Source: a bacterium
Lineage (GTDB): Bacteria; Patescibacteriota; Patescibacteriia; Patescibacteriales; GWC2-42-12
Assembly (NCBI GenBank): GCA_030649205.1
Contig: JAUSGE010000014.1
Location: 28,717 to 92,716, forward strand
Direction: 5' to 3'
Length of the DNA stretch: 64,000 nucleotides
Shown here in pieces: positions 13,144-64,000 of the stretch. Position 1 is the first letter of the stretch. Every line of letters begins with the position of its first letter. Both the position numbers and the translations under genes were made by a program. The notes below the pieces were generated by a model that searched no databases, was not told the origin of the DNA, and saw only the letters and a list, made by a program, of their open reading frames with translations.

Positions 13144-14592
13144 ATGAATAATAGATTATTATTAGTCAACCCGCCGTTTAATGTCGCCAAAGACAATTAC
13201 GACAGCTCGGTATCGGTCGGTTTATTAAGCCTGGCCACCTATTTGGACTGGCGCGGCGTGCCGGTAAAACTTATTGATGGCGTCCGGCAGAAAGATTTTT
13301 TAAAAATTTTTCAACAGGCAGCCGCCGCGAGCGACTTAATTTGTTTTTCCGTTATGACCATGCAGATACCGCAAGCGCTGGAATTATCCGAGCTGGCAAA
13401 AGAGATTAATCCGCAAAGCAAAATTATCTGGGGCGGCGCTCATCCGACTTTTTTCCCGGAACAAACAGCCAGGCATAGCCTGATTGACGCGGTGGTAATA
13501 GGCGATGGCGAGTATGTTATTTTTGATTTGTTTAACGAGCCGGACTGGCAAAAAGTTAACGGCATCGCTTATAAAAAGGGCGGGGAAGTCGTAATTAATT
13601 CTCGGCAAAAGCCGCTTGATCCTAAAACCATGCCGCTGTTTAACTGGGAACTTGAGCCCAGAGAAATACTGGAAAATTTGAGTTTAATCCCGACGCTCAC
13701 TTCCCGCGGCTGTCCTCATCGCTGCGCTTTCTGCATCAACGCCATTCTAAAAAATAGCTGGCGCGCCAGAACCGTTGATCAGGTATTGGAAGATTTAAAG
13801 ATCATAAGCGGCAAGGATTATTTCGCGGGCAAGCCTTTAAGATTTTGGGACGAAAATTTTTTTGTTGACATTAGGCGGGCTAAAGCCATAGTTAATGGCA
13901 TGATTGAGCGCGGGCTTGAGCGGCCCTGGGAGACGACCGTGCGGGCTAATTATATCAGCGCGGCCATGGTTGACGATAATTTTATGGGAAAAATGAAGCA
14001 GTCAGGCTGTTATCTTTTATCGTTCGGCGCCGAATCCGGCTCGCAAATTGTTTTGGATAAAATTAAAAAAGACATAACGCCCGAGCAGATTATTTATGCC
14101 GCCAAGCAATGCCTAAAGCACAAGATTATTCCGCAGTTTTCTTTTATGGTGGGGCTTCCCGGAGAATTAAAGCAAGACATGAAATTAACCGTAAAATTGA
14201 TAGATAAATTGATTAAGTTAAGCGACCAGGTGCAGATTTTAGGCCCGCAGGCGTTTCGGCCTTACCCCGGGTCGGAGTTATACCTGGAATGCGTAGCTTC
14301 GGGCTGGAGCGCTCCCGAAACGCTTCCGGCCTGGAGCCATTTGGTAAAAAATCAGCTGAATTATTTGCAAGTGAAGAACTTTAACTGGGTTAAGCACAAG
14401 GATTTTGTTGATTCCATGGAAGCCTACGTGCGCTTCGGCGCGCATAGTATTAAAAGCGCCATGGGGTCGTCGGTTAAAGCGAGAAAGTTTATTAAATTAG
14501 CTTTTGTTTTAATCTGCCAGCTAAGATGGAAATTAAAATTTTTCGCCTGGCCGTTTGAATTCAAACTGGCGAAAAAATTTGTGACGAAATGA
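13144..14592 (+). CDS. B12-binding domain radical SAM protein (class B)
   Basis: N-terminal Rossmann-like B12-binding region (LLLVNPPF..., GGAHPTFFP) followed by the TSRGCPHRCAFC cluster (Cx3Cx2C). Confidence 0.85.
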   Translation: MNNRLLLVNPPFNVAKDNYDSSVSVGLLSLATYLDWRGVPVKLIDGVRQKDFLKIFQQAAAASDLICFSVMTMQIPQALELSELAKEINPQSKIIWGGAHPTFFPEQTARHSLIDAVVIGDGEYVIFDLFNEPDWQKVNGIAYKKGGEVVINSRQKPLDPKTMPLFNWELEPREILENLSLIPTLTSRGCPHRCAFCINAILKNSWRARTVDQVLEDLKIISGKDYFAGKPLRFWDENFFVDIRRAKAIVNGMIERGLERPWETTVRANYISAAMVDDNFMGKMKQSGCYLLSFGAESGSQIVLDKIKKDITPEQIIYAAKQCLKHKIIPQFSFMVGLPGELKQDMKLTVKLIDKLIKLSDQVQILGPQAFRPYPGSELYLECVASGWSAPETLPAWSHLVKNQLNYLQVKNFNWVKHKDFVDSMEAYVRFGAHSIKSAMGSSVKARKFIKLAFVLICQLRWKLKFFAWPFEFKLAKKFVTK

Positions 14593-16031
14593 ATAAAATA
14601 ATTTTGATTCATATCAACCATTCAGAAGACCATTCGGAAAAAATATTGCCGCTTGGCATTTTATCCGTGGGCAGCGCTTTAAAAAAGCATGGCTTCGGTG
14701 CTGAACTTATAAATATTAATGAAACGGAAATAGATCGGACCGTAGATTACGTGGCTGAACAAAATCCATTATACGCGGGTTTTTCCGTGATGACCGGACG
14801 GCAAACAATGCATAGCGCGAAAATGTCAAAAAAATTAAAAGAGCGCGCTAATATTAAAATAATGTGGGGCGGCATCCATCCGTCGCTTTTGCCCGAGCAA
14901 TGCTTGAGCGAAAGCTACATTGATTTTGTCATCTCCGGAGAAGGGGAGGAAACCGCCGTTGAATTTTCCCGCAAACTGCAATCTGGCGAGCCGTTGGCTG
15001 ATATTTTAGGCTTGGGCTATAAAAGCGGCGGCGCGGTTAAAATCAACCCGCCCCGCCCGATGATAAAAAATTTGGATGACTGGCCGCTTGATTTCAGTTT
15101 GCTTGATTTGGAGAAATACATCTTCAGATTGGATAAATTTAAGCGGGTAATCGCTTATAAAGCCAGCCGCGGCTGCCCCTTTAATTGCGCTTTTTGCTAT
15201 AATCGCGCTTTCAATCAAAGCCGCTGGCGTGCTTGGTCGATTGATCTGGTCGTCTCGGATATTGAATATTTAAAGAAAAATTATAAAATTGACGCTGTAA
15301 AATTTTACGATGATAATTTTTTTGTGGATAAAAATCGCGCTTTGGAAATTTTAAGGCGGATTGGCTTGCCGGCGCACCTGGAAGTAAGAATTGATATGAT
15401 TGACGATTCCATAGCCCGGGCGCTTAAAGAATGCCAAGTTTTTGATTTGCTAATCGGCATTGAATCGGGCAGCGACCGGCTGCTAAAATTAATTAATAAA
15501 AATTTTACGGTTGAACGATTGATTGCCGGAGTAAAAATATTGGCCAAATATGACGTGCCGGCCAGCTATTCGGTTATCGTGGGATTGCCGACCGAGACTA
15601 AAGAAGAATTTGAAGCTACGATTGATTTATTGTATAAAATTTATAAAATTCATCCGCGCGCCGCGGCTTTTTCTCTGGGCGCTTATATGCCGTATCCCGG
15701 GTCGCTAATGTACGACTTTGCCATTAATGAGGGCTTTAAGCCGCCGGAGAAAACCGAGAATTGGGGCAGAATCGACAGGTTTAGAAAAGACTTTTCCACG
15801 CCCTGGACGGATGGAGCGCGGGTCTGGCGCATTCGCGAATATTTTAAGCTGTTAAAGTTAAAATTAGGCCCGATGAATAAATGGTTTGAGCTTAGAATTA
15901 AACATAGATGGTTCGCCCTGCCGTTAGACATTTATTTAATAGAATATTTAGCCGGCGCGGCCATTGAAGAAAAAAGCCGGGCAGGTAAAATTATGAGAAA
16001 AATTTATAATTTAATGAAAAATAAATTATGA
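14589..16031 (+). CDS. B12-binding domain radical SAM protein (class B)
   Basis: GGIHPSLLP B12-domain motif; ASRGCPFNCAFCYN (Cx3Cx2C). Confidence 0.85.
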   Translation: MNKIILIHINHSEDHSEKILPLGILSVGSALKKHGFGAELININETEIDRTVDYVAEQNPLYAGFSVMTGRQTMHSAKMSKKLKERANIKIMWGGIHPSLLPEQCLSESYIDFVISGEGEETAVEFSRKLQSGEPLADILGLGYKSGGAVKINPPRPMIKNLDDWPLDFSLLDLEKYIFRLDKFKRVIAYKASRGCPFNCAFCYNRAFNQSRWRAWSIDLVVSDIEYLKKNYKIDAVKFYDDNFFVDKNRALEILRRIGLPAHLEVRIDMIDDSIARALKECQVFDLLIGIESGSDRLLKLINKNFTVERLIAGVKILAKYDVPASYSVIVGLPTETKEEFEATIDLLYKIYKIHPRAAAFSLGAYMPYPGSLMYDFAINEGFKPPEKTENWGRIDRFRKDFSTPWTDGARVWRIREYFKLLKLKLGPMNKWFELRIKHRWFALPLDIYLIEYLAGAAIEEKSRAGKIMRKIYNLMKNKL

Positions 16032-17146
16032 ATTTATTAGTTATAAATTTGGATAAAGCGATTTTTTCTAAAAATTCCGCTAGTCTTGAAAGGCTTAAGG
16101 AGTATAGCGAGCTGACGGATAAGATGTTTGTTATTGTTTGGACAAAAAATAAAGAGCAAATGATAGTTTATAATAATAAATTGTTTATTTATCCCACCAA
16201 CTCTTGCTGCCGGCTGTTCTATTATTTTGCTTCGCTTGGAATCGCCGGAAAAATATTGAAACATGAAAAAATTGATTTAATTTTTACCCAAGATCCTTTT
16301 GAAACCGGCTTGGCCGGCTGGCTGATCGCCAAAATTTATAAGATTAAATTACAACTGCAAATTCACACGGATATTTTTAGCCCTTATTTTGAGCTTGAAT
16401 CTTTAGCCAATAAATTAAGGGTTTTGCTGGGAAAATTTTTAATAAAAAGAGCTGACAGTTTCAGGGTGGTAAGCCGAAGAATAAAAGAATCTTTAGTTAA
16501 ATTAAGCGTACCGGCGGAAAAAATTTTTGTATTTCCGATTTTTACCGATTTTAAAAAAAATGCCGGCCAGCCAATAAGAAGCGATTTAAAAAGTAAATAT
16601 CCGCGCTTTAATTTTATAGTTTTAATGATATGCCGCCTAAGTCCGGAAAAAAATATTCCCCTGGCCATCAGCGCCATGGCTGACATCGTAAGGCTTCGTC
16701 CCGGCGCCGGCCTGGTAATCATCGGTTCCGGCCGAGAGAGCGAGGAAATAATTAAATTTGGAAAAAATAAATTAGGAGGCATGATGGTTTGGGAAAAATG
16801 GACCGATGATCCGGTTTCGTATTATAAAAGCGCCGATTTATTTTTACTGACTTCTAATTATGAAGGCTGGAGTTTGGCCGTAATTGAAGCCGCTAGTTTC
16901 GGCCTGCCGATTATTATGACTGATGTGGGCTGCGCCGGCGAAGCGATTAAAAACGGCGAAAGCGGCATGATAATACCGGTTGGCAATAAAGAAAAATTAG
17001 TTGAAGTCTTGTTAAAAATTATTGAAGATGAAAATTTAAGGAAAAAATTAGGAGCAAACGCTAAATTGGCGGTAAACCGGCTGCCGAACAAAGAGCAGAC
17101 ATTGAATTTATATAAAATTTCTTGGCAAAAAGCCGTTTTAAAATAA
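16028..17146 (+). CDS. glycosyltransferase family 4
   Basis: YEGWSLAVIEAASFGLPIIMTDVGCAGEAIKNGESGMI (E-x7-E). Confidence 0.8.
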   Translation: MNLLVINLDKAIFSKNSASLERLKEYSELTDKMFVIVWTKNKEQMIVYNNKLFIYPTNSCCRLFYYFASLGIAGKILKHEKIDLIFTQDPFETGLAGWLIAKIYKIKLQLQIHTDIFSPYFELESLANKLRVLLGKFLIKRADSFRVVSRRIKESLVKLSVPAEKIFVFPIFTDFKKNAGQPIRSDLKSKYPRFNFIVLMICRLSPEKNIPLAISAMADIVRLRPGAGLVIIGSGRESEEIIKFGKNKLGGMMVWEKWTDDPVSYYKSADLFLLTSNYEGWSLAVIEAASFGLPIIMTDVGCAGEAIKNGESGMIIPVGNKEKLVEVLLKIIEDENLRKKLGANAKLAVNRLPNKEQTLNLYKISWQKAVLK

Positions 17147-17178: not shown

Positions 17179-19620
17179 ATGTTTAAAAAGTATAGGCTGG
17201 AAATTATTATTTTCTTAATAGCGTTGATTTTAAGATTAGCGTTCGCCGGTATCGTTTATGGCCAGAGCGATTTTAATTATAGCCGATTTTTAGGCAAGCT
17301 AAAGGCTGATAGTTGGCATGACATAGCGCGGAATCTGGTTAATAACAAAATTTATTCAGATAATCAGATTTCGCCGGATTCGGTTAGAACCCCCGGCTAT
17401 CCGGCAATGATTGCCGTTTCTTTGTATATTTTTGATTCTGTTTGGCCATTTCTTATTTTCCAGGTTATTATTGGCAGTTTGCTGCCTTTGCTTGGCCGGA
17501 AAATAAGTTTGGAAATTACGCGGAACAATAAGATTTCCAATCCGGTGGCTCTGATTTTAGCGATTGAACCCATGGGGATTTGGCTATCCATAATGTTAAT
17601 GACAGAAACTATTTTTACCTTGTTTTTTCTTTTGTTCGCGTTGTTTTTTCTTAAATTCATAAAGATAAATCAAGAGCCTGAAGCTCGAGTTTATGATAAT
17701 TTCAGTCATATTGTTTTGGCCGGCCTTTTTTTGGGCCTAGCCACTCTGATCAGGCCAACGACATTTTATTTTCCCATAATTTTAATAATCGGCTGGATTA
17801 TCTATTGGTATTTTATAAAGCATAAATTGTTATTAAAATATCTTTTTGCCTTTTTGACAATTTTTAGCATCGCCGTCGCCCCCTGGCTTTACCGGAATTA
17901 TAAAGTTTTCGGCACGGCCGAGCTTTCAGCCAGCCAAGCGGAGGTATCATTTTGCTATTTGGCTCCTTCGGTGCTGGCCATAAAAGATAAACAAAGTTTT
18001 TCACAAGCCCAGAAGAATTTTTTTAAATCTCAAGGATTTGAAAACTGCCCCAGAATAACTTTAGATAAAGCTCATTGGTTTCAGTCGCGCGTCATTGAAG
18101 TGTCTAAAGAAAATCCAAAAGCTCTGGCGCGGATTTTAGAAATTAGCTTACTGACCTTTTTTACTCATGACGGAGTTTTGAACCTGTTGAGTTATGTCAA
18201 TGCTACAGAGCCATCGGGGTTAACCGCAAGGCAAATAGCGGCACAGCCATGGCCTGAAATATTGCGGACAGCCAGAAGTTTGATTTTTAGCCCGGCTCTT
18301 TTAATAATTTTGGCGCGCGCGTTATGGATTTTAATATTTTTTCTGTTTATTTCAGGAGCGGCTTACGGGCTGATTAAAAAAAAGTTCACAGTTTTTTCGG
18401 CTTTTGCCTTGGCTTGTATCGCTTATTTCGCCTTGACGACAAGTATCGGCGGCTTTGGCGTTAACGCCCGTTTTAGATTTCCGGTTAATGTTTTTATTTT
18501 TGTCTTCGCGATTGGTTTTCTGCGCGAGATTATAAATAGCGGGAAAGATAGAATTTCTGGCAGGGCGAGATTATTGATTTTAACCCAAAAAATTGATCTT
18601 GATGACGATGTGCTTGGTTTTATGCACGGCTGGGTCGCTGAATTCGCGAAAAGATGCGAAAAAATAACGGTGATTGCTTTAAGCGCCGGTGAATATAATT
18701 TACCCGGGAATGTTAAAGTTTTGTCATTAGGCAAAGAAGAGGGTGAATCAAAAATAAAATATTTGGCTAATTTTTATAAGTATATTTGGCGCCATAGAAG
18801 CGAATATGACCATATCTTTGTGCACATGAACAAAGAATATATGCTGCTGGGCTGGCCGTTTTGGCGGTTATGGGGTAATAAAACAACGCTTTGGTATAAT
18901 CATCGCTACGGCAATATACCGGGTGAACTCGCGGGCCTGCTGGCGAACCAAATTTTCTTTACTTCGCCTTTCTCCTTTTTTTCTAGAAATAAGAAAGCCA
19001 GGCAAATGCCGGCCGGCGTGGATACTGATAAATTTATTAAGAATATTCAGGCCGAAAAAATAAAAAATTCTATTCTTTTTTTGAGCCGCATTTCACCGGT
19101 TAAAAAGGCTGATGTTCTTTTAAGGGCGGCGAAGATTCTTGACGCCGAAGGAATTGATTTTATTTTGGATTTTGTCGGCGCCCCTGGCCTGAAAGACGCC
19201 GCGTATTTTAAAAATTTAAAAAATGAAGCGCAAGAGCTGGAAAAAACAGGCAAGGTAAAGTTTTTAGGCAATGTGTCCAATAATCAGGCGCCGGCCGTTT
19301 ATAATCAGCATAGGATCTTTGTGAATTTAACCGATTCCGGCTCTTTTGACAAAACTATTTTAGAGGCCATGGCTTGCGAAATAATGCCGCTGGTTTCCAG
19401 CCGGTCATACGAAAAAGTCTTGCCGCCAGAGTTGATTTTTAAAGAAGATGACGAAAAAGATTTGGCCGAAAAATTATTAAAAGTTTTAGCGATGCCGGAG
19501 CCGGAAACAAAAATTCTTGGCCAAAAATTTCGGCAATACGTCCTGGCCAGCCATAGTTTAGATTTATTGGCGGGGAAAATAGCGGAATCTTTCATAAATC
19601 TTAAAGATGTAGTAAAATAA
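17179..19620 (+). CDS. fusion: N-terminal polytopic GT-C-like membrane domain (ArnT/PMT-like) plus C-terminal GT4-like cytoplasmic domain
   Basis: ~450 aa with at least 10 hydrophobic helices and an N-terminal loop resembling GT39/GT83 (RTPGYPAMIAVSLYIFD). C-terminal ~350 aa has a GT-B layout (LSRISPVKKADVLLRAAKIL...FVGAPG). Confidence 0.6.
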   Translation: MFKKYRLEIIIFLIALILRLAFAGIVYGQSDFNYSRFLGKLKADSWHDIARNLVNNKIYSDNQISPDSVRTPGYPAMIAVSLYIFDSVWPFLIFQVIIGSLLPLLGRKISLEITRNNKISNPVALILAIEPMGIWLSIMLMTETIFTLFFLLFALFFLKFIKINQEPEARVYDNFSHIVLAGLFLGLATLIRPTTFYFPIILIIGWIIYWYFIKHKLLLKYLFAFLTIFSIAVAPWLYRNYKVFGTAELSASQAEVSFCYLAPSVLAIKDKQSFSQAQKNFFKSQGFENCPRITLDKAHWFQSRVIEVSKENPKALARILEISLLTFFTHDGVLNLLSYVNATEPSGLTARQIAAQPWPEILRTARSLIFSPALLIILARALWILIFFLFISGAAYGLIKKKFTVFSAFALACIAYFALTTSIGGFGVNARFRFPVNVFIFVFAIGFLREIINSGKDRISGRARLLILTQKIDLDDDVLGFMHGWVAEFAKRCEKITVIALSAGEYNLPGNVKVLSLGKEEGESKIKYLANFYKYIWRHRSEYDHIFVHMNKEYMLLGWPFWRLWGNKTTLWYNHRYGNIPGELAGLLANQIFFTSPFSFFSRNKKARQMPAGVDTDKFIKNIQAEKIKNSILFLSRISPVKKADVLLRAAKILDAEGIDFILDFVGAPGLKDAAYFKNLKNEAQELEKTGKVKFLGNVSNNQAPAVYNQHRIFVNLTDSGSFDKTILEAMACEIMPLVSSRSYEKVLPPELIFKEDDEKDLAEKLLKVLAMPEPETKILGQKFRQYVLASHSLDLLAGKIAESFINLKDVVK

Positions 19621-24295: not shown

Positions 24296-24299
24296 AAAA

Positions 24300-33439: not shown

Positions 33440-33441
33440 TT

Positions 33442-52531: not shown

Positions 52532-52539
52532 GGTCATAT

Positions 52540-52788
52540 ATGGCTCAAGAAATAAAATCCAACGAAGTTTATACTACGGCCGAAACGCAGCAATTGCTGA
52601 AAATAAGCTCCAGTACGATTAAGCGCATGCTTAAAAAAAAGCTGATTAGAGCCAATAAGGTTGGCGGGCAGTATCGTATTTTAGGCAAGGAAATTTTGCG
52701 CTTGGTTTCTCCGGAGGTTGAAAAACAAGCGATTAAATCGTATTTAAAATTGAAGCAAAAAGTTGTGGATAAAATAAATAAATGGTAA
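52540..52788 (+). CDS. small helix-turn-helix DNA-binding protein (excisionase/MerR-like HTH_17 type)
   Basis: YTTAETQQLLKISSSTIKRMLKKKLIRANKVGGQYRI is the classic excisionase-family HTH; start set at the ATG downstream of the promoter rather than 52513. Confidence 0.6.
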   Translation: MAQEIKSNEVYTTAETQQLLKISSSTIKRMLKKKLIRANKVGGQYRILGKEILRLVSPEVEKQAIKSYLKLKQKVVDKINKW

Positions 52789-54594: not shown

Positions 54595-54608
54595 TTATTT
54601 TTTATATT

Positions 54609-56042: not shown

Positions 56043-56153
56043 TTAAAAATCTATTTGTTAAAATAATGAAAAATATCAGATGGCAAAAGCAAGCCGGCGA
56101 GTGGAAAATGAAATATCAAGCCGTTTAAAGTTAATAAATTAAGTTAATAAAAT

Positions 56154-57963: not shown

Positions 57964-58928
57964 AAATTAAAGATGAAAAAATGAAATATATAAAAGAGAA
58001 AGTTTTAGTGACTGGCGCCGCCGGTTTCGTCGGCTCCCATCTTTGCGAGGCATTAATTAACGACGGATATGAAGTTATCGCGTTAGTCCATAATAAAAAA
58101 GAAATTGGCCGGCTGAAGAATGTCCAGAGATTAAGAGCAATCAAAGGAGATATAGAAAATTTTATTGAAATTTTTAAAATTTTAAAAAAGAATAAGCCAT
58201 CAGGTGTATTTCATCTAGCCGCCATTCAACCATCCAAGCTAAATAATGATCCAGCTGCTTTTTTTGAAGCAAATGTCGGAGGAACTTTTAATATTTTGGA
58301 TGCCAGCCGTCGTCTAAATATTAAGAAAATAATTTACAGTTCCTCAATGAGTGTTTACGGGAGCGTTTATGAAAGAAAAATAAATAATCTTCCGGTAGGA
58401 GAGGATTGCCCGACAGATCCTTATGACTTTTATAGTTTAACCAAGCTAATGGGCGAGGAATTTTGCCGATTTTATGCCAGACAATTTAATTTAAATATTA
58501 TTGTTTTAAGATATTCGGGTATTTTTGGCCCAAGAAAAAAGGGCGGGGCAGTAACCGGTTTTATTAAAAATGCTTTTGCTGGCCAGCCTATAAAAATTTT
58601 AAATAATATAAATTGGGACATTATTCATGTTAAAGACGTTGTAAAGGCTAATATGGCAGCTTTTAAAAAATCGGCTCAAATGCGATTTGAAATAATAAAC
58701 ATCGGAAGCGGCCAAGAGATAAATATAAAAGAGTTGGCTAAAAGTATTTTAGAAATTAGCGGGTCAAAGTCAAAAATTGAATTGGATAAAAATTTATTTT
58801 TATCAAAACCATTGCGTTTTTATTATAATATTACCAAAGCTAAAAAATTGTTGAAATTCAAGCCGATGTCGGCGAAACAAGGCGTGCGGCAATATATTAA
58901 GGAAATTAATAATAATTTTAAAAAATGA
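57960..58928 (+). CDS. NAD-dependent epimerase/dehydratase (SDR)
   Basis: VTGAAGFVGSHLCEAL; YSLTKLMGE (YxxxK). Confidence 0.75.
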   Translation: MKIKDEKMKYIKEKVLVTGAAGFVGSHLCEALINDGYEVIALVHNKKEIGRLKNVQRLRAIKGDIENFIEIFKILKKNKPSGVFHLAAIQPSKLNNDPAAFFEANVGGTFNILDASRRLNIKKIIYSSSMSVYGSVYERKINNLPVGEDCPTDPYDFYSLTKLMGEEFCRFYARQFNLNIIVLRYSGIFGPRKKGGAVTGFIKNAFAGQPIKILNNINWDIIHVKDVVKANMAAFKKSAQMRFEIINIGSGQEINIKELAKSILEISGSKSKIELDKNLFLSKPLRFYYNITKAKKLLKFKPMSAKQGVRQYIKEINNNFKK

Positions 58929-59623
58929 TTTTATCCGGGCATCAGCCAGAGTATCTGCCTTATCTTGGGTTTATTCATAAGATCGCCAAAGCCGGCCAAT
59001 TTATTTTAGTCGACCATGTTCAATATCTTGAAAAAAGTTTTCAAAACAGCAATAGAATCAGAACGGCTCCGGGTCAGGAGGGCTTTACCTGGCTGATAGT
59101 GCCGGTTAAGAGCCATGGCAGAAGATATCAGAAAATAAATGAAGTGGAAATAGATAACTCCGTCGCTTGGGGGAAAAAGCATTGGAAAACTATTTATTTA
59201 AATTATAAGAAAGCCCCCTTTTTTGATAATTACCAAGAATTTTTTGAAAAATTATATTTAAAAAAATGGGACAAGCTAGTTGATTTAAATGAAACAATCA
59301 TTTATTATTTAGTGGAAAAGCTGGGCGTTAAAACGCCGATTGTCAGAAGCTCCGATTATGATTTTAAAGAGAAAAAAAATGATTTGCTGATAGAAATGTG
59401 TAAAAAATTAAAAGCTGGCGCCTATTTGTCCGGCCAGGGAGCAAAATGCTACGTTGATGAAGAAAAGTTTAAAAAAAATGGTTTAAATCATATATTTTCC
59501 GATTTTAAACATCCGACTTATCTCCAAAGATTTAAGCCTTTTGCAGCCAATCTTTCCGTGATTGATTTATTATTCAATTGCGGCCCGGAAAGTTTAAATA
59601 TAATTCTAAATAATAAACACTAA
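58925..59623 (+). CDS. WbqC-like family protein
   Basis: N-terminal ILSGHQPEYLPYLGFIHKIAKA matches the conserved WbqC-like (PF08889) start; 232 aa. Confidence 0.6.
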   Translation: MILSGHQPEYLPYLGFIHKIAKAGQFILVDHVQYLEKSFQNSNRIRTAPGQEGFTWLIVPVKSHGRRYQKINEVEIDNSVAWGKKHWKTIYLNYKKAPFFDNYQEFFEKLYLKKWDKLVDLNETIIYYLVEKLGVKTPIVRSSDYDFKEKKNDLLIEMCKKLKAGAYLSGQGAKCYVDEEKFKKNGLNHIFSDFKHPTYLQRFKPFAANLSVIDLLFNCGPESLNIILNNKH

Positions 59624-59624
59624 T

Positions 59625-60725
59625 ATGATTCCTTTAGCTAGGCCGACTTTACCAAAGTTTAGTTCCATTGAAAAAAAATTAAAGGGAATTTTTAAAAGCG
59701 GCATGCTCACTGACTCAAAGTATGTTGGTGAATTTGAACAGAGATGCGCTGATTTTTTAGGGGTGGAAAATGTCGCGGCCGTGTCTAGCGGAACGGCGGC
59801 GCTAACTTTAATATTAAAATGTCTGAAGTTAAAAGGCGAAGTTATTCTGCCGAGTTTTACTTTTACTTCCGGAGTTAATGCTTTATTTTGGTGTGGTTTG
59901 ACCCCGGTTTTCGCGGATATTAACCCTAAAACTTTTAATATTGATCCGGCCTCAATTCAAAAAAAAATAACTAAAAAAACCGCGGCTATTTTGGCGACGC
60001 ATGTTTTTGGCAATCCATGCGAGATAGAAAAAATTGAGAAAATCGCTAAAAAAAATAATTTAAAAGTTATTTATGACGCCGCCCATGCTTTCGGGTCAAC
60101 CTACAAAGGGAAATCGGTATTTTGTTTTGGCGACGCTTCTATTGTTAGCTTTACTCCAACTAAAGTAATTACTACGGCCGAGGGCGGATTAGCGGTGGTA
60201 AAAGATAAAAATTTTTCCAGAATTTTAAAATTAGGCAGGAATAATGGCGACAGTTTCAACAGGGCGGAAGAGTTTTTGGGAATTACCGCCAGAATGAACG
60301 AATTTAGCGCTATTTTAGGAATTGAAGGATTGAAAATATTTAATATAAATTTAAAAAGAAGGCTAAGAATAATAAATTTATATAAAAAAGAATTGGCCCA
60401 GGTTAACGGCGTATCTTTACAAAAACTAGAGCATGATTCCTTCTCGGTATATAAAGATTTTACTATTTTGGTGGATGAAAAAAAATTCGGCATGTCCAGA
60501 GATGATTTATTACAGAAGTTATTAAAGGATAAAATTCAGACCAAAACATATTTTTATCCCCCGCTTCACCAAAAGATAACCTGTTCAAAATTGCGTAAAT
60601 CACTTTTGCCAGAGACTGAGAACATCAGTTCGCGCATTATGAGTCTGCCGCTTTATTCCCATATGCCGGAAAAATACGTTCAGCAAGTTTGCACGTTGAT
60701 TAAAAAATCTTATGTCAAAAAATAA
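59625..60725 (+). CDS. DegT/DnrJ/EryC1-family sugar aminotransferase
   Basis: VSSGTAALTLILKCL...SFTPTKVITTAEGG. Confidence 0.8.
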   Translation: MIPLARPTLPKFSSIEKKLKGIFKSGMLTDSKYVGEFEQRCADFLGVENVAAVSSGTAALTLILKCLKLKGEVILPSFTFTSGVNALFWCGLTPVFADINPKTFNIDPASIQKKITKKTAAILATHVFGNPCEIEKIEKIAKKNNLKVIYDAAHAFGSTYKGKSVFCFGDASIVSFTPTKVITTAEGGLAVVKDKNFSRILKLGRNNGDSFNRAEEFLGITARMNEFSAILGIEGLKIFNINLKRRLRIINLYKKELAQVNGVSLQKLEHDSFSVYKDFTILVDEKKFGMSRDDLLQKLLKDKIQTKTYFYPPLHQKITCSKLRKSLLPETENISSRIMSLPLYSHMPEKYVQQVCTLIKKSYVKK

Positions 60726-61890
60726 ACCAAAAAAAATAATGAAAGTAGCGGTTGTAACCGGCACCAGGGCGGAATACGGAATTTTAAAGCCATTATTAAA
60801 AAAAATTAAAAATTTTTCTGGTTTTAAATTAGAGTTAATGATTACGGGTATACATTTATTAAAGCGATATGGTCTGACGATCGGAGAAATTAAAAAAGAT
60901 GGTTTTAAAACGGATGAGAGAGTTGTTATGTATGAAAAAAACGAGGAAGCAAGTTGTTACTACGGAGAGGCATTGGGAAAGGGAATAAAAAATTTTACGA
61001 AGATGTTTTTAAAAATTAAGCCCGATCTTTTAATAGTGCTCGGCGATCGACTGGAGCCTTTGGCTGCGACCCTGTCTGCGGCGAATTTAATAATTCCCAT
61101 CATCCATATTCATGGCGGAGAAAAAACCAACAGCGGCTGTATTGATGAAAGTATCAGGCACGCCATCACCAGATTTGCTCATATTCATCTGGTATCAACA
61201 GAACAGAGTAAACAAAGGCTCATAAAAATGGGCGAAGAGCCGTGGCGGATATTCAGGGTGGGCGCGCTGGGACAAGAAAGCTTTTTGAATTCCCCTAAGA
61301 TAAAGAGGGAGGTTCTTTTTGGTAAATTTCGGCTGGACAGCAAGCAGAAGCTTATTCTTTGCCTGTTTAATCCGGTTATTTTTGAAGCGGATAAAATGGG
61401 AAGGCATATGCGGGAAATATTGAAAGCGCTTGAAGAGTTAAAAATTCAAAGCATTATTATTTATCCGAACAACGACATTGGCGGCAAGGATATCATAAAA
61501 GAAATAGATAAGCACAAGAATTCGCCGTTTATAAAAATTTACCCCAACCTGAACCATGAAGATTATGTTAGTTTATTAAAACAGGCCAATGTTTTAATAG
61601 GAAATTCCAGTTCCGGCATCATTGAGGCGCCATCTATTAAATTACCAGTGGTGAATATCGGTTTAAGAAATACCGGGCGGGAGCACGCGGAGAATATTAT
61701 ATTCGCGGATCCGGCTAAAAATGATATTATAGAGGCGATTAAAAAAACGCTTTATGACAAAAAATTCAGGAAAAAATTGAAGACATGCAAAAATCCTTAC
61801 GGAGATACAAAAACAGTTGAAAAAATTATTAATATTTTAAATAAAATAAAAATTAATAAAAAGCTGCTTACCAAGTATCTTACTTATTGA
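60712..61890 (+). CDS. UDP-N-acetylglucosamine 2-epimerase, hydrolysing type (NeuC/LegG-like); alternative start ATG 60739
   Basis: MKVAVVTGTRAEYGILKPLL...DRLEPLAATLSAANLIIPIIHIHGGEKT are canonical NeuC motifs. Confidence 0.8.
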   Translation: MSKNKPKKIMKVAVVTGTRAEYGILKPLLKKIKNFSGFKLELMITGIHLLKRYGLTIGEIKKDGFKTDERVVMYEKNEEASCYYGEALGKGIKNFTKMFLKIKPDLLIVLGDRLEPLAATLSAANLIIPIIHIHGGEKTNSGCIDESIRHAITRFAHIHLVSTEQSKQRLIKMGEEPWRIFRVGALGQESFLNSPKIKREVLFGKFRLDSKQKLILCLFNPVIFEADKMGRHMREILKALEELKIQSIIIYPNNDIGGKDIIKEIDKHKNSPFIKIYPNLNHEDYVSLLKQANVLIGNSSSGIIEAPSIKLPVVNIGLRNTGREHAENIIFADPAKNDIIEAIKKTLYDKKFRKKLKTCKNPYGDTKTVEKIINILNKIKINKKLLTKYLTY

Positions 61891-63326
61891 TAAATTTTAT
61901 GAATGATTGTATACTAGCTTATCCAATTCCGACGGCTGATAGTCCGGTTAAAGGTTCGGCTCTTTCTATTTTTTATCCGGGAGCTATGCTGGAACAAAAC
62001 GGCCTTAAGGTTGAGTATTTCGACGAACGATTTGACAAGTTTGATGACCTTCTGTTTTTATTAAAGGAAAATCCGGTTTGCGTCGGCGTGTCTTCAATGA
62101 CTGGTTATCAATTGATTAGAAGCAAGCGAATATTGGAAACGGTGAAGAAAGTAAATCCGAACATTTATACGATCTTCGGCGGCGCCCATCCTTCATTGCT
62201 TCCCGCGCAGTGCATTAAAGAAGATTTTGTGGATTTTGTGGTTGTTGGAGAAGGCGAAAAAACACTGCTGGAATTGGTAATGGCTTTAAAGAACGGAGGC
62301 AATTTAAGCAAAGTGGACGGTATTTTTTGGAAAAACAAAGGAAAAATTATCGCTAATAAGCATAGAGAGTTCATGGATCCCACGGAGTGGCCGTTCCCCC
62401 TGACCCCAAAAAATAGAAAATATTTTAAGATCGCCGCTAACAGGGGGGAGCTGATGTTCCCGGCAAGTCGAGGTTGTCCGTATAATTGCAATTTTTGTTA
62501 TAATCAAACATTTAACCGCCGCAGTTGGCGGCCGATGCCGCTTGATAAATTTGAAAAAGAGTTGGGGATTTTTTTGCGGGAATTCAAAATTAAAAACGCG
62601 TATATAAACGACGACAATATTGGTTCAAATAAGGCCAGAATAAAGAAAATAGCCGAAATTATAAAAAGATTCGGAATCACCTGGAGCACGAGTATAAGAT
62701 GCAGCGATATGGACGAAGAAACCGCGAGAGTGTTTGAGGAAAGCGGCTGCCACGAGCTGCTCCTGGGCGTTGAATCCGGCTCGGACAGAGTTCTTAACGA
62801 AGTGGTCAACAAAATGTATCCTAAAGGCAGTGAAGATATCCGCAACTGCGCCAGAATTTTAAGTAAGACAAAGATCCGCGGGAGATATAACTTTATAGCA
62901 GGCCTGCCCAGCGAAACAGCGGAAGAAACACATAAAAGCATGGATTTAGCCGATTGGATCTGGCGAACCGATCAGAACGCTAAAATTGCTTTTGCCGCCT
63001 TTTCTCCTTACCCCGGCAGCAAACTTTATCAAGAAGCGCTGAAAGCCGGTTTTAAAGAGCCCCAGGATTTTTCAGGTTGGAGCAAAATGTCCTTAAGCAA
63101 TGAAGTCAATCCCATAGCCAGTAATCTTTATTATATAGCTGGATTGAAATTCAGGGAGAAAAAAGGGGATTCAACCAATAGAAATTTTTCCGGGTTGAAA
63201 AGATTGATAATTTATCCTTTTGAAATTTCAGCGCGGCTTCGCTGGAAATACAGATTTTTAAAATATTACGAATTAGAAAAATTCATAATAAAGATGTTGT
63301 TTATTTGGGCTAGTAAAAGAACTTGA
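61887..63326 (+). CDS. B12-binding domain radical SAM protein (class B)
   Basis: GGAHPSLLP; ASRGCPYNCNFCYNQ (Cx3Cx2C). Confidence 0.85.
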   Translation: MINFMNDCILAYPIPTADSPVKGSALSIFYPGAMLEQNGLKVEYFDERFDKFDDLLFLLKENPVCVGVSSMTGYQLIRSKRILETVKKVNPNIYTIFGGAHPSLLPAQCIKEDFVDFVVVGEGEKTLLELVMALKNGGNLSKVDGIFWKNKGKIIANKHREFMDPTEWPFPLTPKNRKYFKIAANRGELMFPASRGCPYNCNFCYNQTFNRRSWRPMPLDKFEKELGIFLREFKIKNAYINDDNIGSNKARIKKIAEIIKRFGITWSTSIRCSDMDEETARVFEESGCHELLLGVESGSDRVLNEVVNKMYPKGSEDIRNCARILSKTKIRGRYNFIAGLPSETAEETHKSMDLADWIWRTDQNAKIAFAAFSPYPGSKLYQEALKAGFKEPQDFSGWSKMSLSNEVNPIASNLYYIAGLKFREKKGDSTNRNFSGLKRLIIYPFEISARLRWKYRFLKYYELEKFIIKMLFIWASKRT

Positions 63327-63383
63327 TCAAAAGCACATAATTTTAAATTAATTTATTATGGTTATAAAAATTAGTATGGAAGT

Positions 63384-63412
63384 TTGAAAATTGGCGAAAA
63401 AATTGTTAGAAT
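63384..63412 (+). promoter_or_regulatory. near-consensus sigma70-type promoter (TTGAAA-17 nt-TAGAAT) upstream of the terminal radical SAM gene
   Basis: ttgaaa 63384-63389, 17 nt spacer, tagaat 63407-63412; AT-rich 150 bp intergenic region. Confidence 0.45.
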
Positions 63413-63476
63413 ATTAAATAGAGTAAAAATAGATAAAAAATTATTACAAAAAAGATAATTTATTATAATAAAATTT

Positions 63477-64000
63477 ATGAAAAAAGAGTTTAAAGGCATT
63501 TCTTTAAGAAAACATGAGTTGGAAGAATTTATGGGAAATTTTAAGGACATGCCGGATAGGTTATTAAAATATTGTGAAATATTATTAGAGGGCAAGGACG
63601 CCTCTCCTTATTGTTTCCAAGATACTATGTCATTTAGACATATAGGCGTTGGTCTTACTTCCAAATGCAACAAGCACTGTGTTTGGTGCTATCGGTTTGA
63701 TCCGATGTATAAAAATGTTTTAAATAAAGAACTTCCTTTTGAAAAATTGGAAAAAATAGTTAATAACACTAAAGGAAAATTCAGGATGGTAAAATTGGGC
63801 GGGCTAGGAGAGCCGATTCTTTATCCTCGTCTTTTGGATGCGATTGCATTAGTGAGAAAATTGTCGGATAGAGTTAGAATTACCAGTAACGCCAGTTTAT
63901 TGAACAAAAATTTAATTAATAAAATGATTGAGAGCGGATTAACTGATATAGAAGTCAGTATTCTCACATTTGACGAAAAAGAAGAGATGAAATTAAGAGG
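63477..64000 (+). CDS. radical SAM protein, 3'-partial (no N-terminal B12 domain; Cys cluster near the N-terminus)
   Basis: ATG at 63477, frame open to the window end. GVGLTSKCNKHCVWCYRFD (Cx3Cx2C) ~60 aa from the start, G-rich SAM motif GGLGEPILYP. Not in the supplied ORF track because it is truncated. Confidence 0.7.
   Translation, partial: MKKEFKGISLRKHELEEFMGNFKDMPDRLLKYCEILLEGKDASPYCFQDTMSFRHIGVGLTSKCNKHCVWCYRFDPMYKNVLNKELPFEKLEKIVNNTKGKFRMVKLGGLGEPILYPRLLDAIALVRKLSDRVRITSNASLLNKNLINKMIESGLTDIEVSILTFDEKEEMKLR

Follow-up and report, generated by a model that had tools for sequence, protein, structure and literature searches.

AprD4 is a diol dehydratase that works with the reductase partner AprD3 (PMC5461906) and operates without cobalamin (PMC12931638). 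HpnJ has been proposed to act on lipid-linked glucosamine put on by the glycosyltransferase HpnI (PMC13459092). Both enzymes act on sugars already joined to an aglycone (PMC13459092; PMC5461906).

Here, we describe a locus of more than 70 kb for the synthesis of what is probably a cell-envelope glycan; most of it lies in the window, the 64 kb stretch of DNA that was analysed. It carries seven class-B (B12-domain) radical SAM genes together with one AprD4-type, probably cobalamin-independent, and one MoaA/SPASM-like radical SAM gene. The host is an uncultivated bacterium, probably ultra-small and most probably a member of Patescibacteria (CPR). No description of such radical glycan tailoring was found in literature searches.

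Extent and layout of the locus

A sequence-only reading had placed the glycan locus from 13144 onwards in one plus-strand operon-like array. The locus is under way by 741 (Wzy_C/TPR, GT4, UDP-Glc dehydrogenase and SDR genes) and runs on for at least about 9.3 kb past base 64000, as read from L165, a contig of the same organism (100% identical DNA over 11.1 kb). L165 and L001 (an exact rSAM4 match) are independent Logan contigs from SRR13727527 and support the assembly. NCBI proteins MDO8592371/373/405 match the window, which shows long synteny with Patescibacteria MAG contigs. The array is not uniform: four genes are read from the minus strand (2985-4178, 40663-41916, 45544-46308 and 50920-52419), and an ISNCY-family insertion sequence (about 46401-47852, plus strand) interrupts the locus. 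Its transposase (46506-47801) scores 392 bits on NF033594 (cutoff 250), imperfect 29-nt inverted repeats lie at 46401-46429 and at 47824-47852, and the local GC content is 0.49, whereas the flanking DNA has about 0.40. Several transcription units make up the locus; the longest unbroken stretches of genes in one direction extend over 5981-35932, where no gap exceeds 104 nt, and over 52807-63326, where none exceeds 111 nt.

The glycan context that had been described was confirmed with Pfam and NCBIfam, the tally being a Wzy_C gene, eight GT4, three GT2, a GT-C, an ABC flippase-like exporter, four DegT, seven SDR, a GMD and NeuB/NeuC. Neither an initiating phosphoglycosyltransferase nor housekeeping genes were recognized in the window, and no cobalamin uptake or salvage genes were found in the window or the 9.3 kb read downstream.

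The upstream end holds a polytopic Wzy_C protein (O-antigen ligase/polymerase-like; 741-2978, plus strand; PF04932, 71.9 bits, and TPR families) with about ten hydrophobic segments and C-terminal TPR repeats. Patescibacteria loci L005, L006 and L103 carry a homolog in the corresponding place, and the protein probably performs the last glycan transfer or polymerization step. By their Pfam families, the genes of 2985-11579 are assigned to precursor supply and assembly: a GT4 (2985-4178, minus strand), a UDP-Glc/GDP-Man dehydrogenase (4360-5754), a truncated UGDH-like gene (5981-6946), three SDR epimerases/dehydratases (6948-9764), a second GT4 (9761-10915) and the short GT2 GT2_a (10854-11579), whose top NCBIfam matches, all below cutoff, are polyprenyl/dolichyl-phosphate sugar synthases (AglJ, PgfS, ArnC and PpgS).

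In the middle block (29343-45487), Pfam recognized GT4s (starts 29343, 33442 and 42623), a GT2 (34614), DegT aminotransferases (30678, 36369 and 39566), a GDP-mannose 4,6-dehydratase (32441), methyltransferases (31797 and 35300), a TylC3-type sugar C-methyltransferase (40663-41916, minus strand), a hexapeptide acyltransferase (42017) and a UGDH-like/methyltransferase fusion (43814-45487). A 9-TM protein identified by hydropathy (37669-39564) had no family match in Pfam or NCBIfam.

The radical SAM proteins

Eight class-B genes sharing an N-terminal B12 domain and a Cx3Cx2C motif had been claimed. All eight ORFs are intact plus-strand radical SAM genes with no internal stops, and their coordinates were confirmed apart from one start: for the eighth gene, ATG 61899 is more likely than TTG 61887. 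Profile HMMs placed Radical_SAM (PF04055) above cutoff in all eight (E 2.6e-11 to 3e-31) and B12-binding (PF02310) above the 32.1-bit cutoff in seven (45-83 bits). The same number carry CX3CX2C, at residues 190-207. The exception in both respects is rSAM5 (27080-28432), with a PF02310 score of only 16.4 bits and CX3CX3C (CPYGCSFYC at residue 201). The ninth, different radical SAM gene that had been noticed at 63477 is real.

The eight proteins are paralogs in a distant sense only. Their pairwise identity of 22-35% indicates old, distinct subfamilies and not recent duplicates, and all five that were checked (rSAM1, rSAM2, rSAM4, rSAM5 and rSAM8) have their own orthologs elsewhere at 60-85%. The seven class-B proteins are strongly conserved. 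None of the eight reaches a curated NCBIfam cutoff, so the reaction types proposed here are extrapolations, drawn from relatives with 17-24% identity in structural alignments. Chance cannot account for eight such domain architectures within 51 kb; among 80 related loci, each about 21 kb long, only five hold four or more such genes.

Gene neighbourhoods and proposed reactions

By comparison of loci, the 11.5-29 kb block is conserved in Patescibacteria. It opens with GtrA_GT4 (11500-13131, plus strand), a GtrA-like TM domain (PF04138, 78 bits; three N-terminal TM segments) fused to a GT4 glycosyltransferase (PF00534, 139 bits). rSAM1 (13144-14592, plus strand; CPHRCAFC at residue 190; PF04055 65 bits, PF02310 64 bits) follows it, an order conserved in L005, L006, L083, L088 and L091. 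Orthologs of rSAM1 in Patescibacteria loci share 61-69%; its top NCBIfam match is HpnJ (138 bits, cutoff 578) and its top PDB match is QCMT (9CCB, E 2e-15). rSAM2 (14589-16031, plus strand; CPFNCAFC at residue 196; PF04055 89.5 bits, PF02310 65 bits) shares 4 nt with rSAM1 at one end and 4 nt with the following GT4 at the other. It matches BchE (137 bits) and HpnJ (136 bits) below their cutoffs and has 63-72% orthologs in L088, L093, L094, L095 and L128. The GT4 (16028-17146, plus strand) and an 813-aa protein with an N-terminal domain of about ten TM segments and a C-terminal GT4 domain (17179-19620, plus strand; Pfam and hydropathy) stand in the same order relative to rSAM1/2 and GT2_b-rSAM4 in loci of Patescibacteria.

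rSAM3 (19645-21000, plus strand; motif at residue 194; PF04055 104 bits, PF02310 68 bits) scores below cutoff against BchE (192 bits), Sden_1168 (183 bits) and HpnJ (180 bits). Its neighbours are a PRK07208-family FAD-dependent oxidoreductase (21005-22531, plus strand; NF005546, 798.6 bits, cutoff 418) and TM363, a 10-TM membrane protein (22503-23594, plus strand; hydropathy) with weak PMT_2 similarity (PF13231, 20.7 bits, below cutoff). The three-gene block recurs at 68-78% identity in L096 and L098, and a 75% ortholog of rSAM3 with the same oxidoreductase neighbour was found in one locus, L098. rSAM1, rSAM2 and rSAM3 may tailor the sugars handled by the adjoining GtrA-GT4, GT4 and FAD-oxidoreductase genes.

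Module A (23603-27078) begins with GT2_b, a short GT2 of 230 aa (23603-24295, plus strand; PF00535, 110.7 bits). Its top PDB matches are dolichol-P-mannose synthase (5MLZ, E 8.5e-16), ArnC and GtrB, and it is probably a polyprenyl-phosphate sugar synthase. rSAM4 follows (24300-25703, plus strand; CPGRCTFC at residue 207; PF04055 109 bits, PF02310 83 bits), with HpnJ as its highest NCBIfam score (277.7 bits, cutoff 577.6). The predicted fold (pLDDT 86.8) also places it in class B, with PDB matches to AprD4 (top solved structure, TM 0.77), QCMT, TsrM, CysS, OxsB and TokK. More than 120 clusters of rSAM4 homologs were found at 58-85% identity; the named sources of the best 120 are all Patescibacteria or unclassified 'bacterium'. 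The module ends with a GT-C fold glycosyltransferase (PMT_2/ArnT-like; 25753-27078, plus strand; PF13231 47.4 bits, cutoff 26.1; PF02366 40.4 bits) with at least eight TM segments by hydropathy. Of 81 loci with rSAM4 orthologs, at least 62 have a short GT2 directly beside the ortholog, and 32 have a GT-C within three genes of it (24 of 45 at 55% identity or above). In the proposed scheme GT2_b would load a sugar onto polyprenyl phosphate, rSAM4 would edit the polyprenyl-P-sugar by C-methylation or an HpnJ-like rearrangement, and GT-C would then transfer the modified sugar on the outer side of the membrane.

Module B (27080-29238) consists of rSAM5 (plus strand) and SDR272, a short NAD(P)-dependent SDR (28420-29238, plus strand; PF01370, 74.9 bits) that overlaps it by 13 nt. 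rSAM5 is homologous to the rSAM4 family over its full length (hhalign E 1e-68). Its N-domain is degenerate, the 'GGxHPS' stretch of the other set members reading 'G.FAS', and is probably cobalamin-free. rSAM5 scores 162.8 bits against the AprD4 family (cutoff 500), matches AprD4 itself (PDB 6FD2) with E 2e-37 and shares its GCPYxCxFYCPY motif. The model (pLDDT 94) matches 6FD2 in Foldseek with E 2e-29 and TM 0.81, the runner-up being 13 orders of magnitude weaker. Across 80 loci, the next recognizable gene after the rSAM5 homolog is an SDR in 29, which come from both bacteria and archaea, and a DegT aminotransferase in 20, mostly annotated as Acidobacteria; this switching of partners suggests a keto product. 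By analogy with AprD4 and AprD3, rSAM5 is proposed to be a sugar 1,2-diol dehydratase and SDR272 its ketoreductase partner. rSAM5 would dehydrate a vicinal diol to a deoxy-keto sugar, whose keto group SDR272 would reduce, so that the sugar would end up deoxygenated; in Acidobacteria a transamination would take the place of this reduction.

Module C (48972-50927) is rSAM6, a 651-aa TokK/CysS/KedN5-type class-B protein whose C terminus carries a long extension (plus strand; PF02310 50.8 bits, PF04055 44.4 bits). Upstream of it lies an NDP-sugar 4,6-dehydratase/epimerase-like SDR (47856-48860, plus strand; PF16363 and PF01370) with dTDP-glucose dehydratase and LegB-like scores below cutoffs. rSAM6 matches TokK (7KDX, E 7.9e-42) and CysS (9N1B, E 2.2e-27), scores 150 bits against the KedN5 subfamily (cutoff 700) and has a 35% homolog adjoining NulO genes in L166. 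It is probably a cobalamin-dependent C-methyltransferase and would act as a methylcobalamin enzyme of the TokK/GenK type. Beyond it are a Capsule_synth-family protein (50920-52419, minus strand; Pfam), a small HTH_17 ORF (about 52513-52788, from the gene call in L165) and a fused TMD-NBD ABC exporter (52807-54594; Pfam), HepA/MsbA/PglK-like with all scores below cutoffs (345.6, 312 and 221 bits, respectively).

Module D (54609-64000 and beyond) starts with rSAM7 (54609-56042, plus strand; CTNRCNFC at residue 207; PF04055 70.5 bits, PF02310 45.2 bits), which sits between the exporter and the nonulosonic-acid genes and scores below cutoffs against BchE (109 bits), PhpK (108 bits) and TIGR04295 (105 bits). 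The legionaminic/neuraminic-type cassette (56154-61890, plus strand; Pfam and NCBIfam) encodes a cytidylyltransferase, NeuB synthase (TIGR03569, 438 bits, cutoff 400), a LegB-like SDR, a WbqC-family protein, a LegC/PseC-like aminotransferase and NeuC hydrolysing 2-epimerase (TIGR03568, 429 bits, cutoff 236); PseF scores 192 bits against a cutoff of 205.7. rSAM8 (61899-63326, plus strand; CPYNCNFC; PF02310 and PF04055 66 bits each), read from ATG 61899, has 475 aa and is identical to MDO8592405.1. It directly follows NeuC in L165 also, and its 70-74% orthologs stand directly after Epimerase_2 (NeuC) in two independent contigs, L166 and L167, with NeuB, WbqC and PIG-L nearby; it is better conserved than its neighbours (43-52%). 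rSAM9 (63477-64000, plus strand; CNKHCVWC at residue 64; PF04055 46 bits) is MoaA/SPASM-like and lacks a B12 domain. Its N-terminal 174 aa lie in the window and the full length is 364 aa (L165 11579-12673); its top NCBIfam matches are far below cutoffs, and the NulO locus L166 holds an analogous rSAM/SPASM gene. rSAM8 and rSAM9, and perhaps rSAM7, would modify a legionaminic-type nonulosonic acid intermediate.

Interpretation and comparison with known systems

Glycan genes are the genomic partners of these radical SAMs in many independent genomes, which makes glycan tailoring, as had been suggested, the best reading. The set brings together old subfamilies, each associated with particular glycan genes, and is not a lineage-specific burst of paralogs. 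A BchE-like tetrapyrrole role was also rejected: BchE scores across the set are 23-208 bits against a cutoff of 481, and tetrapyrrole genes are absent. Linkage inside Patescibacteria could partly come from shared ancestry and not from functional coupling; however, rSAM4-GT2 pairing, often with GT-C, spans Patescibacteria and DPANN archaea, and the linkage occurs in both gene orders and down to 46% identity, including on an archaeal contig.

The set thus points to uncharacterized radical chemistry on cell-surface sugars. The analysis establishes domain architectures, motifs, predicted folds, orthology and conserved gene linkage; from these we infer substrates, reaction types, cobalamin binding and the cell-surface destination, and lipid-linked are told from nucleotide-linked substrates by gene adjacency only. 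A corrinoid requirement of the host may reasonably be expected from the B12-type domains; since AprD4, the top structural match of rSAM4, binds no cobalamin, such a domain is not proof of cobalamin use. We consider it likely that a cell-envelope glycan undergoes modular radical tailoring by modules A-D, which would act on its lipid-linked and nonulosonate sugars.

C-methylation, which the earlier reading named beside other radical chemistry, is specifically indicated only for rSAM6 (TokK, CysS). Among characterized enzymes, rSAM3-5 come nearest to HpnJ, putatively a ring-contraction enzyme, and to the dehydratase AprD4. Module B would achieve net deoxygenation as AprD4/AprD3 do. Module A would be of the same three-component type as the Gtr and Arn systems, with a radical editing step inserted.

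The radical SAM genes and their glycan locus

An ORF map confirmed eight radical SAM genes (rSAM1–rSAM8) on the plus strand, starting at 13144, 14589, 19645, 24300, 27080, 48972, 54609 and, probably, 61899, and free of internal stops. In a profile-HMM check, all eight products exceeded the Pfam cutoff for Radical_SAM (PF04055), with E values between 2.6e-11 and 3e-31. The common layout ascribed to them in the sequence-only reading, a B12 domain with Cx3Cx2C, was found in seven (rSAM1–4 and rSAM6–8). These score 45–83 bits on PF02310 (gathering cutoff 32.1), carry CX3CX2C at residues 190–207 and share a GGxHPS stretch; rSAM5 departs from the layout and the GGxHPS stretch is replaced in it. Cobalamin binding by the seven B12-domain proteins is predicted from sequence; to our knowledge, no conserved cobalamin-ligand motif exists in base-off class-B enzymes. 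The corrinoid requirement proposed for the organism is plausible, and as far as we know Patescibacteria are generally without cobalamin synthesis.

The eight proteins, previously described as paralogs, do belong to one superfamily. They are not the outcome of a recent duplication burst, their pairwise identities being 22–35% with rSAM6 (651 aa) as the outlier. Orthologs of their own were found elsewhere at 60–85% identity for rSAM1, rSAM2, rSAM4, rSAM5 and rSAM8, and at 75% for rSAM3 in a single related locus (L098). Because these values lie so far above those within the set, the eight are old, separately maintained subfamilies that were brought together. The concern that they might be pseudogenes was dispelled: all eight are full length relative to their orthologs and the cluster cysteines are invariant.

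None of the eight reached a curated NCBIfam cutoff. The top partial scores were obtained with HpnJ, BchE and PhpK for most of them, with AprD4 and HpnJ for rSAM5 and with KedN5 for rSAM6. A tetrapyrrole role of the BchE type (TIGR02026) was rejected, the scores being 23–208 bits against a cutoff of 481 and tetrapyrrole genes being absent from the window. A RiPP-maturase role was likewise rejected; matches to ApyD and rSAM_ocin lie far under their cutoffs and no peptide-related genes were seen. JGI homologs are often automatically labelled 'anaerobic magnesium-protoporphyrin IX monomethyl ester cyclase' or 'YgiQ'. These labels are over-annotations, curated cutoffs and genomic context both being against them. 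The amphipathic, basic C-termini of the radical SAM proteins were tested as membrane anchors and contain no clear TM segment.

By profile matches, all recognizable genes of the window belong to glycan biosynthesis except one insertion sequence and one NUDIX gene. They comprise a Wzy_C/TPR membrane protein (Pfam), eight GT4 genes, one fused to a GtrA domain (PF04138, 78 bits; 11500–13131) and one to a 10-TM domain, three short GT2 genes, a PMT_2-type GT-C gene (47 bits; 25753–27078) and a second, weaker GT-C. The sugar-nucleotide enzymes are UDP-sugar dehydrogenases, seven SDR epimerases/dehydratases and a GDP-mannose 4,6-dehydratase. Tailoring is represented by four DegT aminotransferases, three or four class-I methyltransferases, a TylC3-type sugar C-methyltransferase and a hexapeptide acyltransferase. 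A Capsule_synth protein, a fused ABC exporter (HepA/MsbA/PglK-like) and a nonulosonic-acid cassette (56154–61890) with NeuB and NeuC over curated cutoffs complete the set. No tRNA or marker genes were found in the 64 kb window, and the GT-C protein had no match when its sequence was searched against the PDB.

The locus had been taken to begin at 13144; glycan genes are indeed present throughout, and they start already by base 741. Past base 64000 the locus runs on for at least 9.3 kb in an overlapping contig of the same organism (L165, 12103–21428), which encodes PIG-L, an acyltransferase, SDRs, a second Capsule_synth-like gene, DegT, a methyltransferase, a 593-aa NeuB–cytidylyltransferase fusion and full-length rSAM9. 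The latter, the ninth and different radical SAM gene starting at 63477, is real; its 364-aa product is MoaA/SPASM-like and has no B12 domain. This gene content, downstream of the window, implies a putative second pathway for a nonulosonic or ulosonic acid.

The description of the genes as one plus-strand operon-like array was narrowed, four minus-strand genes and an insertion sequence being present. It applies to two long co-directional runs (5981–35932 and 52807–63326) in which genes overlap or nearly abut. A scan gave consensus-level promoter- and terminator-like sites at several gene junctions, which hint at several transcription units. The insertion sequence (about 46401–47852) is of the ISNCY family, with a transposase at 46506–47801 (392 bits, cutoff 250) and imperfect 29-nt inverted repeats. 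Together with the minus-strand NUDIX gene (45544–46308) it forms a GC-rich island of 0.49–0.51 in surroundings of about 0.40. Along the window the GC content drops from about 0.45 (1–16 kb) to about 0.36 (50–64 kb); an arrangement conserved in Patescibacteria falls in the first half, the nonulosonic-acid genes in the second. This pattern suggests a mosaic of modules that differ in history.

Several further genes are of unusual structure. A UGDH-like gene without the C-terminal UDP-binding domain adjoins an SDR gene with a 1-nt gap (5981–7874). The two may be a split, or misread, fusion, since in a Portnoybacteria contig (L083, 868–2853) they form a single 661-aa fusion protein. At 43814–45487 a partial UDP-glucose/GDP-mannose dehydrogenase-like N-terminal part is fused to a class-I SAM methyltransferase domain. 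The 631-aa protein encoded at 37669–39564 has about nine transmembrane segments and no match in Pfam or NCBIfam, and that at 17179–19620 (813 aa) has an N-terminal domain of about ten transmembrane segments, outside recognized families, fused to a GT4 domain. Each is a candidate for an unrecognized polymerase, flippase or GT-C-like enzyme.

Conserved gene modules

For rSAM4, 81 anchored loci, metagenomic and genomic, with orthologs 46–81% identical were compared. A short GT2 gene, corresponding to GT2_b of the window (23603–24295), directly adjoins the rSAM4 ortholog in at least 62 of the 81 loci, a contig end cutting six more, and the pairing is kept when the gene order is inverted. A PMT_2 GT-C gene lies no more than three genes away in 32/81 loci, and in 24 of the 45 with the closest orthologs. 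The best solved relatives of GT2_b in the PDB are dolichol-phosphate mannose synthase (DPMS), ArnC and GtrB, all of which load sugar onto polyprenyl phosphate. The top NCBIfam score of rSAM4 is 277.7 bits with HpnJ (TIGR03471), under the cutoff of 577.6, and no hopanoid (hpn/shc) genes were found in the window or the related loci. HpnJ is a putative ring-contracting enzyme; its proposed substrate is a glucosamine that the glycosyltransferase HpnI attaches to a lipid (PMC13459092).

The predicted model of rSAM4 (pLDDT 86.8) matched AprD4 best (TM 0.77), followed by the cobalamin-bound structures of QCMT, TsrM, CysS, OxsB and TokK (TM 0.66–0.72). The class-B architecture of rSAM4 is confirmed at the level of this predicted fold, from which cobalamin binding is not provable. 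The simplest model for the GT2_b–rSAM4–GT-C module (23603–27078), by analogy, is a Gtr/Arn-type three-component decoration system with a radical editing step: the lipid-linked sugar would be edited by rSAM4 and then transferred by the GT-C protein.

The GT2_b–rSAM4 pair (52% and 63% identity) and the rSAM5 family were also seen on the archaeal contigs L084/L117 (JGI Ga0315280_10000013) and L008 (Nanoarchaeota AAA011-G17). The archaeal contig with the pairing at 63% identity has the housekeeping genes RpoN and Rpr2 as neighbours. The presence of these genes beside archaeal housekeeping genes on DPANN-type contigs indicates cross-domain transfer of modules between ultra-small bacteria and archaea.

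rSAM5 (27080–28432) has the cluster motif CPYGCSFYC (CX3CX3C) and PF04055, with only 16.4 bits on PF02310. Its core aligned with AprD4 (PDB 6FD2) with an E value of 2e-37, GCPYxCxFYCPY occurring in both. The predicted model (pLDDT 94) was matched by Foldseek to 6FD2 over the full length (E = 2e-29, TM 0.81), the runner-up being 13 orders of magnitude weaker. On the AprD4 family NF033070 it scores 162.8 bits, under the cutoff of 500; rSAM5 is a distant AprD4 relative and not an equivalog. AprD4 is a radical SAM 1,2-diol dehydratase with the NADPH reductase AprD3 as its partner (PMC5461906); AprD4 and ArsL fall into the same similarity network as B12-radical SAM enzymes, yet neither binds cobalamin (PMC12931638). 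The assumption that all eight enzymes are of the cobalamin type thus fails for rSAM5, whose motif and fold are those of the cobalamin-independent dehydratase.

The SDR gene SDR272 (28420–29238; 272 aa) shares 13 nt with the 3' end of rSAM5; sequence searches with its product returned generic SDRs only. Among 80 rSAM5-anchored loci drawn from species-representative genomes, its homolog is the next recognizable gene after the rSAM5 homolog in 29, from Patescibacteria, DPANN archaea, Omnitrophota, Elusimicrobia and Planctomycetota. A DegT aminotransferase takes this position in another 20, mostly annotated as Acidobacteria and including the cultured Pyrinomonas methylaliphatogenes. A ketoreductase or aminotransferase would be the expected partner if the radical SAM product were a deoxy-keto sugar, and on account of this partner choice we assign rSAM5 and SDR272 to sugar deoxygenation, a reaction inferred from fold and linkage.

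A search of the PDB with rSAM6 gave TokK (E = 7.9e-42) and CysS (E = 2.2e-27), with only residues 56–398 aligned. Its sequence is clearly related to these cobalamin-dependent C-methylases. KedN5 (NF033712) is its top NCBIfam match with 150 bits, under the cutoff of 700. A homolog of rSAM6 at 35% identity adjoins nonulosonic-acid genes in another locus (L166).

For rSAM8, placed at 61887 in the sequence-only reading, the probable start is the ATG at 61899, which gives a product of 475 aa exactly matching NCBI MDO8592405.1. Orthologs 70–74% identical directly follow a NeuC-type epimerase gene, with NeuB, WbqC and PIG-L genes near, on two independent contigs (L166 and L167), and the NeuC–rSAM8 order is also present in L165 from the same organism. 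This conserved placement ties rSAM8 to nonulosonic-acid metabolism. When the two independent contigs are compared with the window at 56851–63326, the NeuB, NeuC and WbqC orthologs are just 43–52% identical, so that rSAM8 is the most constrained member of the cassette. NeuB scores 438 bits on TIGR03569 (cutoff 400) and NeuC 429 bits on TIGR03568 (cutoff 236), which places both in the nonulosonic-acid families; the cytidylyltransferase scores 192 bits on PseF, just under the cutoff of 205.7. No paper linking nonulosonic acids and radical SAM enzymes was found in the literature searched.

Of the remaining genes, rSAM1 is always preceded by the GtrA–GT4 fusion in the loci compared, and in Patescibacteria loci it is followed by rSAM2, and rSAM3 by a PRK07208 FAD-oxidoreductase. 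rSAM7 is flanked by the ABC exporter gene on one side and the nonulosonate genes on the other. The FAD-oxidoreductase (21005–22531; 798 bits on the PRK07208 'hypothetical protein' family) is weakly similar at its C-terminus to UDP-galactopyranose mutase. It is kept beside rSAM3 at 78% identity in two related loci (L096 and L098).

Distribution and interpretation

Every named source of the 120 best rSAM4 homologs (58–85% identity) was Patescibacteria (Portnoybacteria, Staskawiczbacteria, 'Patescibacteria group') or an unclassified 'bacterium', and long stretches of gene order are common to the window and several Patescibacteria MAG contigs. On these two grounds a Patescibacteria (CPR) origin of the contig is likely. 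The proteins have identical counterparts in NCBI, labelled 'radical SAM protein', on a 144-kb MAG contig, and in Logan assemblies of SRR13727527. The best match among GTDB species representatives is 74% identical, and the source genome is not among them. Gene order in the block at 11.5–29 kb is conserved among Patescibacteria.

Three or more class-B-like genes within about 21 kb were counted in 11 of the 80 rSAM5-anchored loci, with six in one Omnitrophota locus. Loci with five or six such genes in about 15–21 kb of glycan genes were observed in L053 (Omnitrophota), L008, L009 and L015, with Nanoarchaeota and Planctomycetia among the lineages. Radical-SAM-rich glycan loci are therefore a recurrent, uncharacterized theme. 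This recurrence and the conserved 11.5–29 kb block make the feature real and widespread in uncultivated lineages, the window being an extreme example. In the literature searched, no description was found of B12-radical SAM enzymes in Patescibacteria or DPANN, or in O-antigen, polysaccharide or nonulosonic-acid loci.

Judged by fold and by the conservation of gene linkage, the evidence best supports radical tailoring of a surface glycan, with lipid-linked or pathway-intermediate sugars probably serving as substrates in discrete modules. The leading idea of the sequence-only reading was that all seven B12-type enzymes are simple cobalamin-dependent C-methyltransferases (GenK/GenD1/MoeK5-like) that produce a heavily C-methylated glycan. 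C-methyltransferases are by far the best represented class-B radical SAM group (PMC12931638), rSAM6 is like TokK and CysS, and among cobalamin-binding PDB structures rSAM1 and rSAM4 are best matched by the methylase QCMT. We nevertheless consider the idea unlikely for the set: rSAM3, rSAM4, rSAM5 and rSAM8 have their top scores on HpnJ or BchE, neither of which is a methylase, rSAM5 is AprD4-like, and the locus already has its TylC3-type sugar C-methyltransferase and class-I methyltransferases. C-methylation is specifically indicated for rSAM6 and not for the others. It is distinctly improbable that the enzymes act instead on membrane lipids or head groups, in the manner of HpnJ, archaeal Cds or ladderane/GDGT enzymes, and equally so that lipid-scavenging organisms make an unusual glycolipid or cyclitol lipid with them. 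Such a role would accord with HpnJ as the top family for rSAM4, rSAM5, rSAM8 and rSAM1, with 138–149 bits for rSAM3 and rSAM4 on the lipid-biosynthesis family TIGR04072, with the parallel between the GT2–rSAM pair and HpnI–HpnJ (PMC13459092) and with families common to CPR bacteria and DPANN archaea. Every one of these scores is, however, far under its cutoff, hopanoid and isoprenoid-lipid genes are absent from the window and the neighbouring loci listed, and the partners (GT-C, GT4, Wzy_C, the ABC flippase-like exporter and nonulosonic-acid genes) are those usually seen with glycans that are polymeric or linked to protein.

Envelope-glycan hallmarks (Wzy_C, GT-C/PMT_2, GtrA, the polyprenyl-P sugar synthase-like GT2 genes, NeuB/NeuC and the CMP-transferase) make it very improbable that the locus is a secondary-metabolite cluster of the aminoglycoside- or oligosaccharide-antibiotic type, even though antibiotic pathways are the source of all the nearest characterized relatives (AprD4, TokK, CysS, KedN5 and GenK-type enzymes) and aminotransferases and methyltransferases are numerous. 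Genes for 2-deoxy-scyllo-inosose synthase, PKS and NRPS are absent from the window, and the core block is 60–85% identical over many Patescibacteria-type contigs, unlike a sporadic antibiotic cluster. Least credible, and already largely refuted, is that the array arose by chimeric assembly or consists of decaying genes without current function. The GC drift from 0.45 to 0.36 and the IS element might suggest this; against it stand the eight full-length ORFs with their invariant cysteines, the recurrence of the gene order in other MAGs and metagenomes, and independent Logan contigs from SRR13727527, of which L001 encodes the same rSAM4 protein and L165 has 100% DNA identity over 11.1 kb.

Beyond radical tailoring as such, a broader proposal is offered tentatively, as one we hold possible but doubtful. 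CPR bacteria and DPANN archaea would share, by cross-domain transfer, a corrinoid-dependent pathway in which a B12-radical SAM enzyme rewrites a polyprenyl-phosphate-borne sugar (for example by carbocyclization/ring contraction, as proposed for HpnJ, or by C-branching), a GT-C protein installs it on the cell surface and further radical SAM enzymes remodel nonulosonic acids. If true, lipid-linked sugars would be edited in a new way, leading to sugar types not yet described, and these episymbionts would need corrinoids scavenged from their community to synthesize surface glycans.

The difficult reactions for which class-B radical SAM enzymes are known involve antibiotics, cofactors and lipids; a role in ordinary cell-envelope glycan assembly was not described in the literature searched. 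Here they are built into fixed glycan modules (GT2–rSAM–GT-C, rSAM–reductase and NeuC–rSAM), which were seen repeatedly in DPANN archaea and on many metagenomic contigs of the Patescibacteria type. Both groups are ultra-small and host-dependent, their surface structures probably mediate host attachment and their biochemistry has hardly been explored. Should the proposed functions prove right, one would expect new sugars (deoxy, C-branched or carbocyclic) as well as modified nonulosonic acids, the corrinoid dependence of genome-reduced symbionts would have a concrete, testable reason, and compact, co-transferable enzyme pairs would become available for glyco-engineering. The automatic 'BchE' and 'YgiQ' labels are corrected for a large set of homologs.

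Comparison with known systems

The cassette upstream of rSAM8 resembles the legionaminic/neuraminic-type pathway (NeuC/LegG, NeuB/LegI, LegB, LegC and CMP-transferase) in that its NeuB and NeuC pass the family cutoffs and a LegB-like SDR, a LegC/PseC-like aminotransferase and a cytidylyltransferase lie in one co-directional run. It differs in the insertion of a class-B enzyme right after NeuC, kept in two other lineages, and in the WbqC, PIG-L and second radical SAM genes that accompany it. rSAM6 shares with the C-methylases TokK, CysS and KedN5 the B12 domain, the radical SAM core, a long C-terminal extension and a similar total length; unlike theirs, its gene lies in a glycan locus, adjoining an NDP-sugar SDR.

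With the AprD4/AprD3 pair of apramycin C3' deoxygenation, rSAM5 has in common the CX3CX3C motif, the core and fold, a degenerate B12-like N-domain and an adjoining, translationally overlapping NAD(P) reductase gene. The identity in the structural alignment is only about 22%, and the setting is an envelope-glycan locus of CPR bacteria and DPANN archaea rather than an actinomycete aminoglycoside cluster. The substrate cannot be paromamine, and the homologs with an aminotransferase partner, in loci mostly annotated as Acidobacteria, are a further difference.

The constant glycosyltransferase neighbour of rSAM4 is paralleled in HpnI/HpnK/HpnJ (hopanoid BHT-glucosamine to cyclitol ether) and archaeal Cds (calditol synthase). 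As for HpnI–HpnJ, the proposed substrate is a sugar already on a lipid (PMC13459092), and the PIG-L deacetylase genes near rSAM8 and rSAM9 recall the HpnK deacetylation step. The HpnJ reaction itself was genetically inferred and not reconstituted. In contrast to the hopanoid system, the rSAM4 locus lacks squalene–hopene cyclase and the other hpn genes, polyprenyl phosphate is the presumed lipid partner and a GT-C transferase comes next.

The Gtr (GtrA/GtrB/Gtr*) and Arn (ArnC/ArnD/ArnE-F/ArnT) systems use monosaccharides linked to polyprenyl phosphate for the decoration of envelope glycans. All three of their component types are present in the window: a polyprenyl-P sugar synthase-like GT2, a GtrA-family protein and a GT-C (PMT_2/ArnT-like) are encoded together. 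ArnD is a precedent for the editing of a lipid-linked sugar prior to transfer; a B12-type radical SAM editor in such systems was not described in the literature searched. The locus differs from the Gtr/Arn systems in the fusion of GtrA to GT4, and in that the editing enzyme would be a B12-type radical SAM protein.
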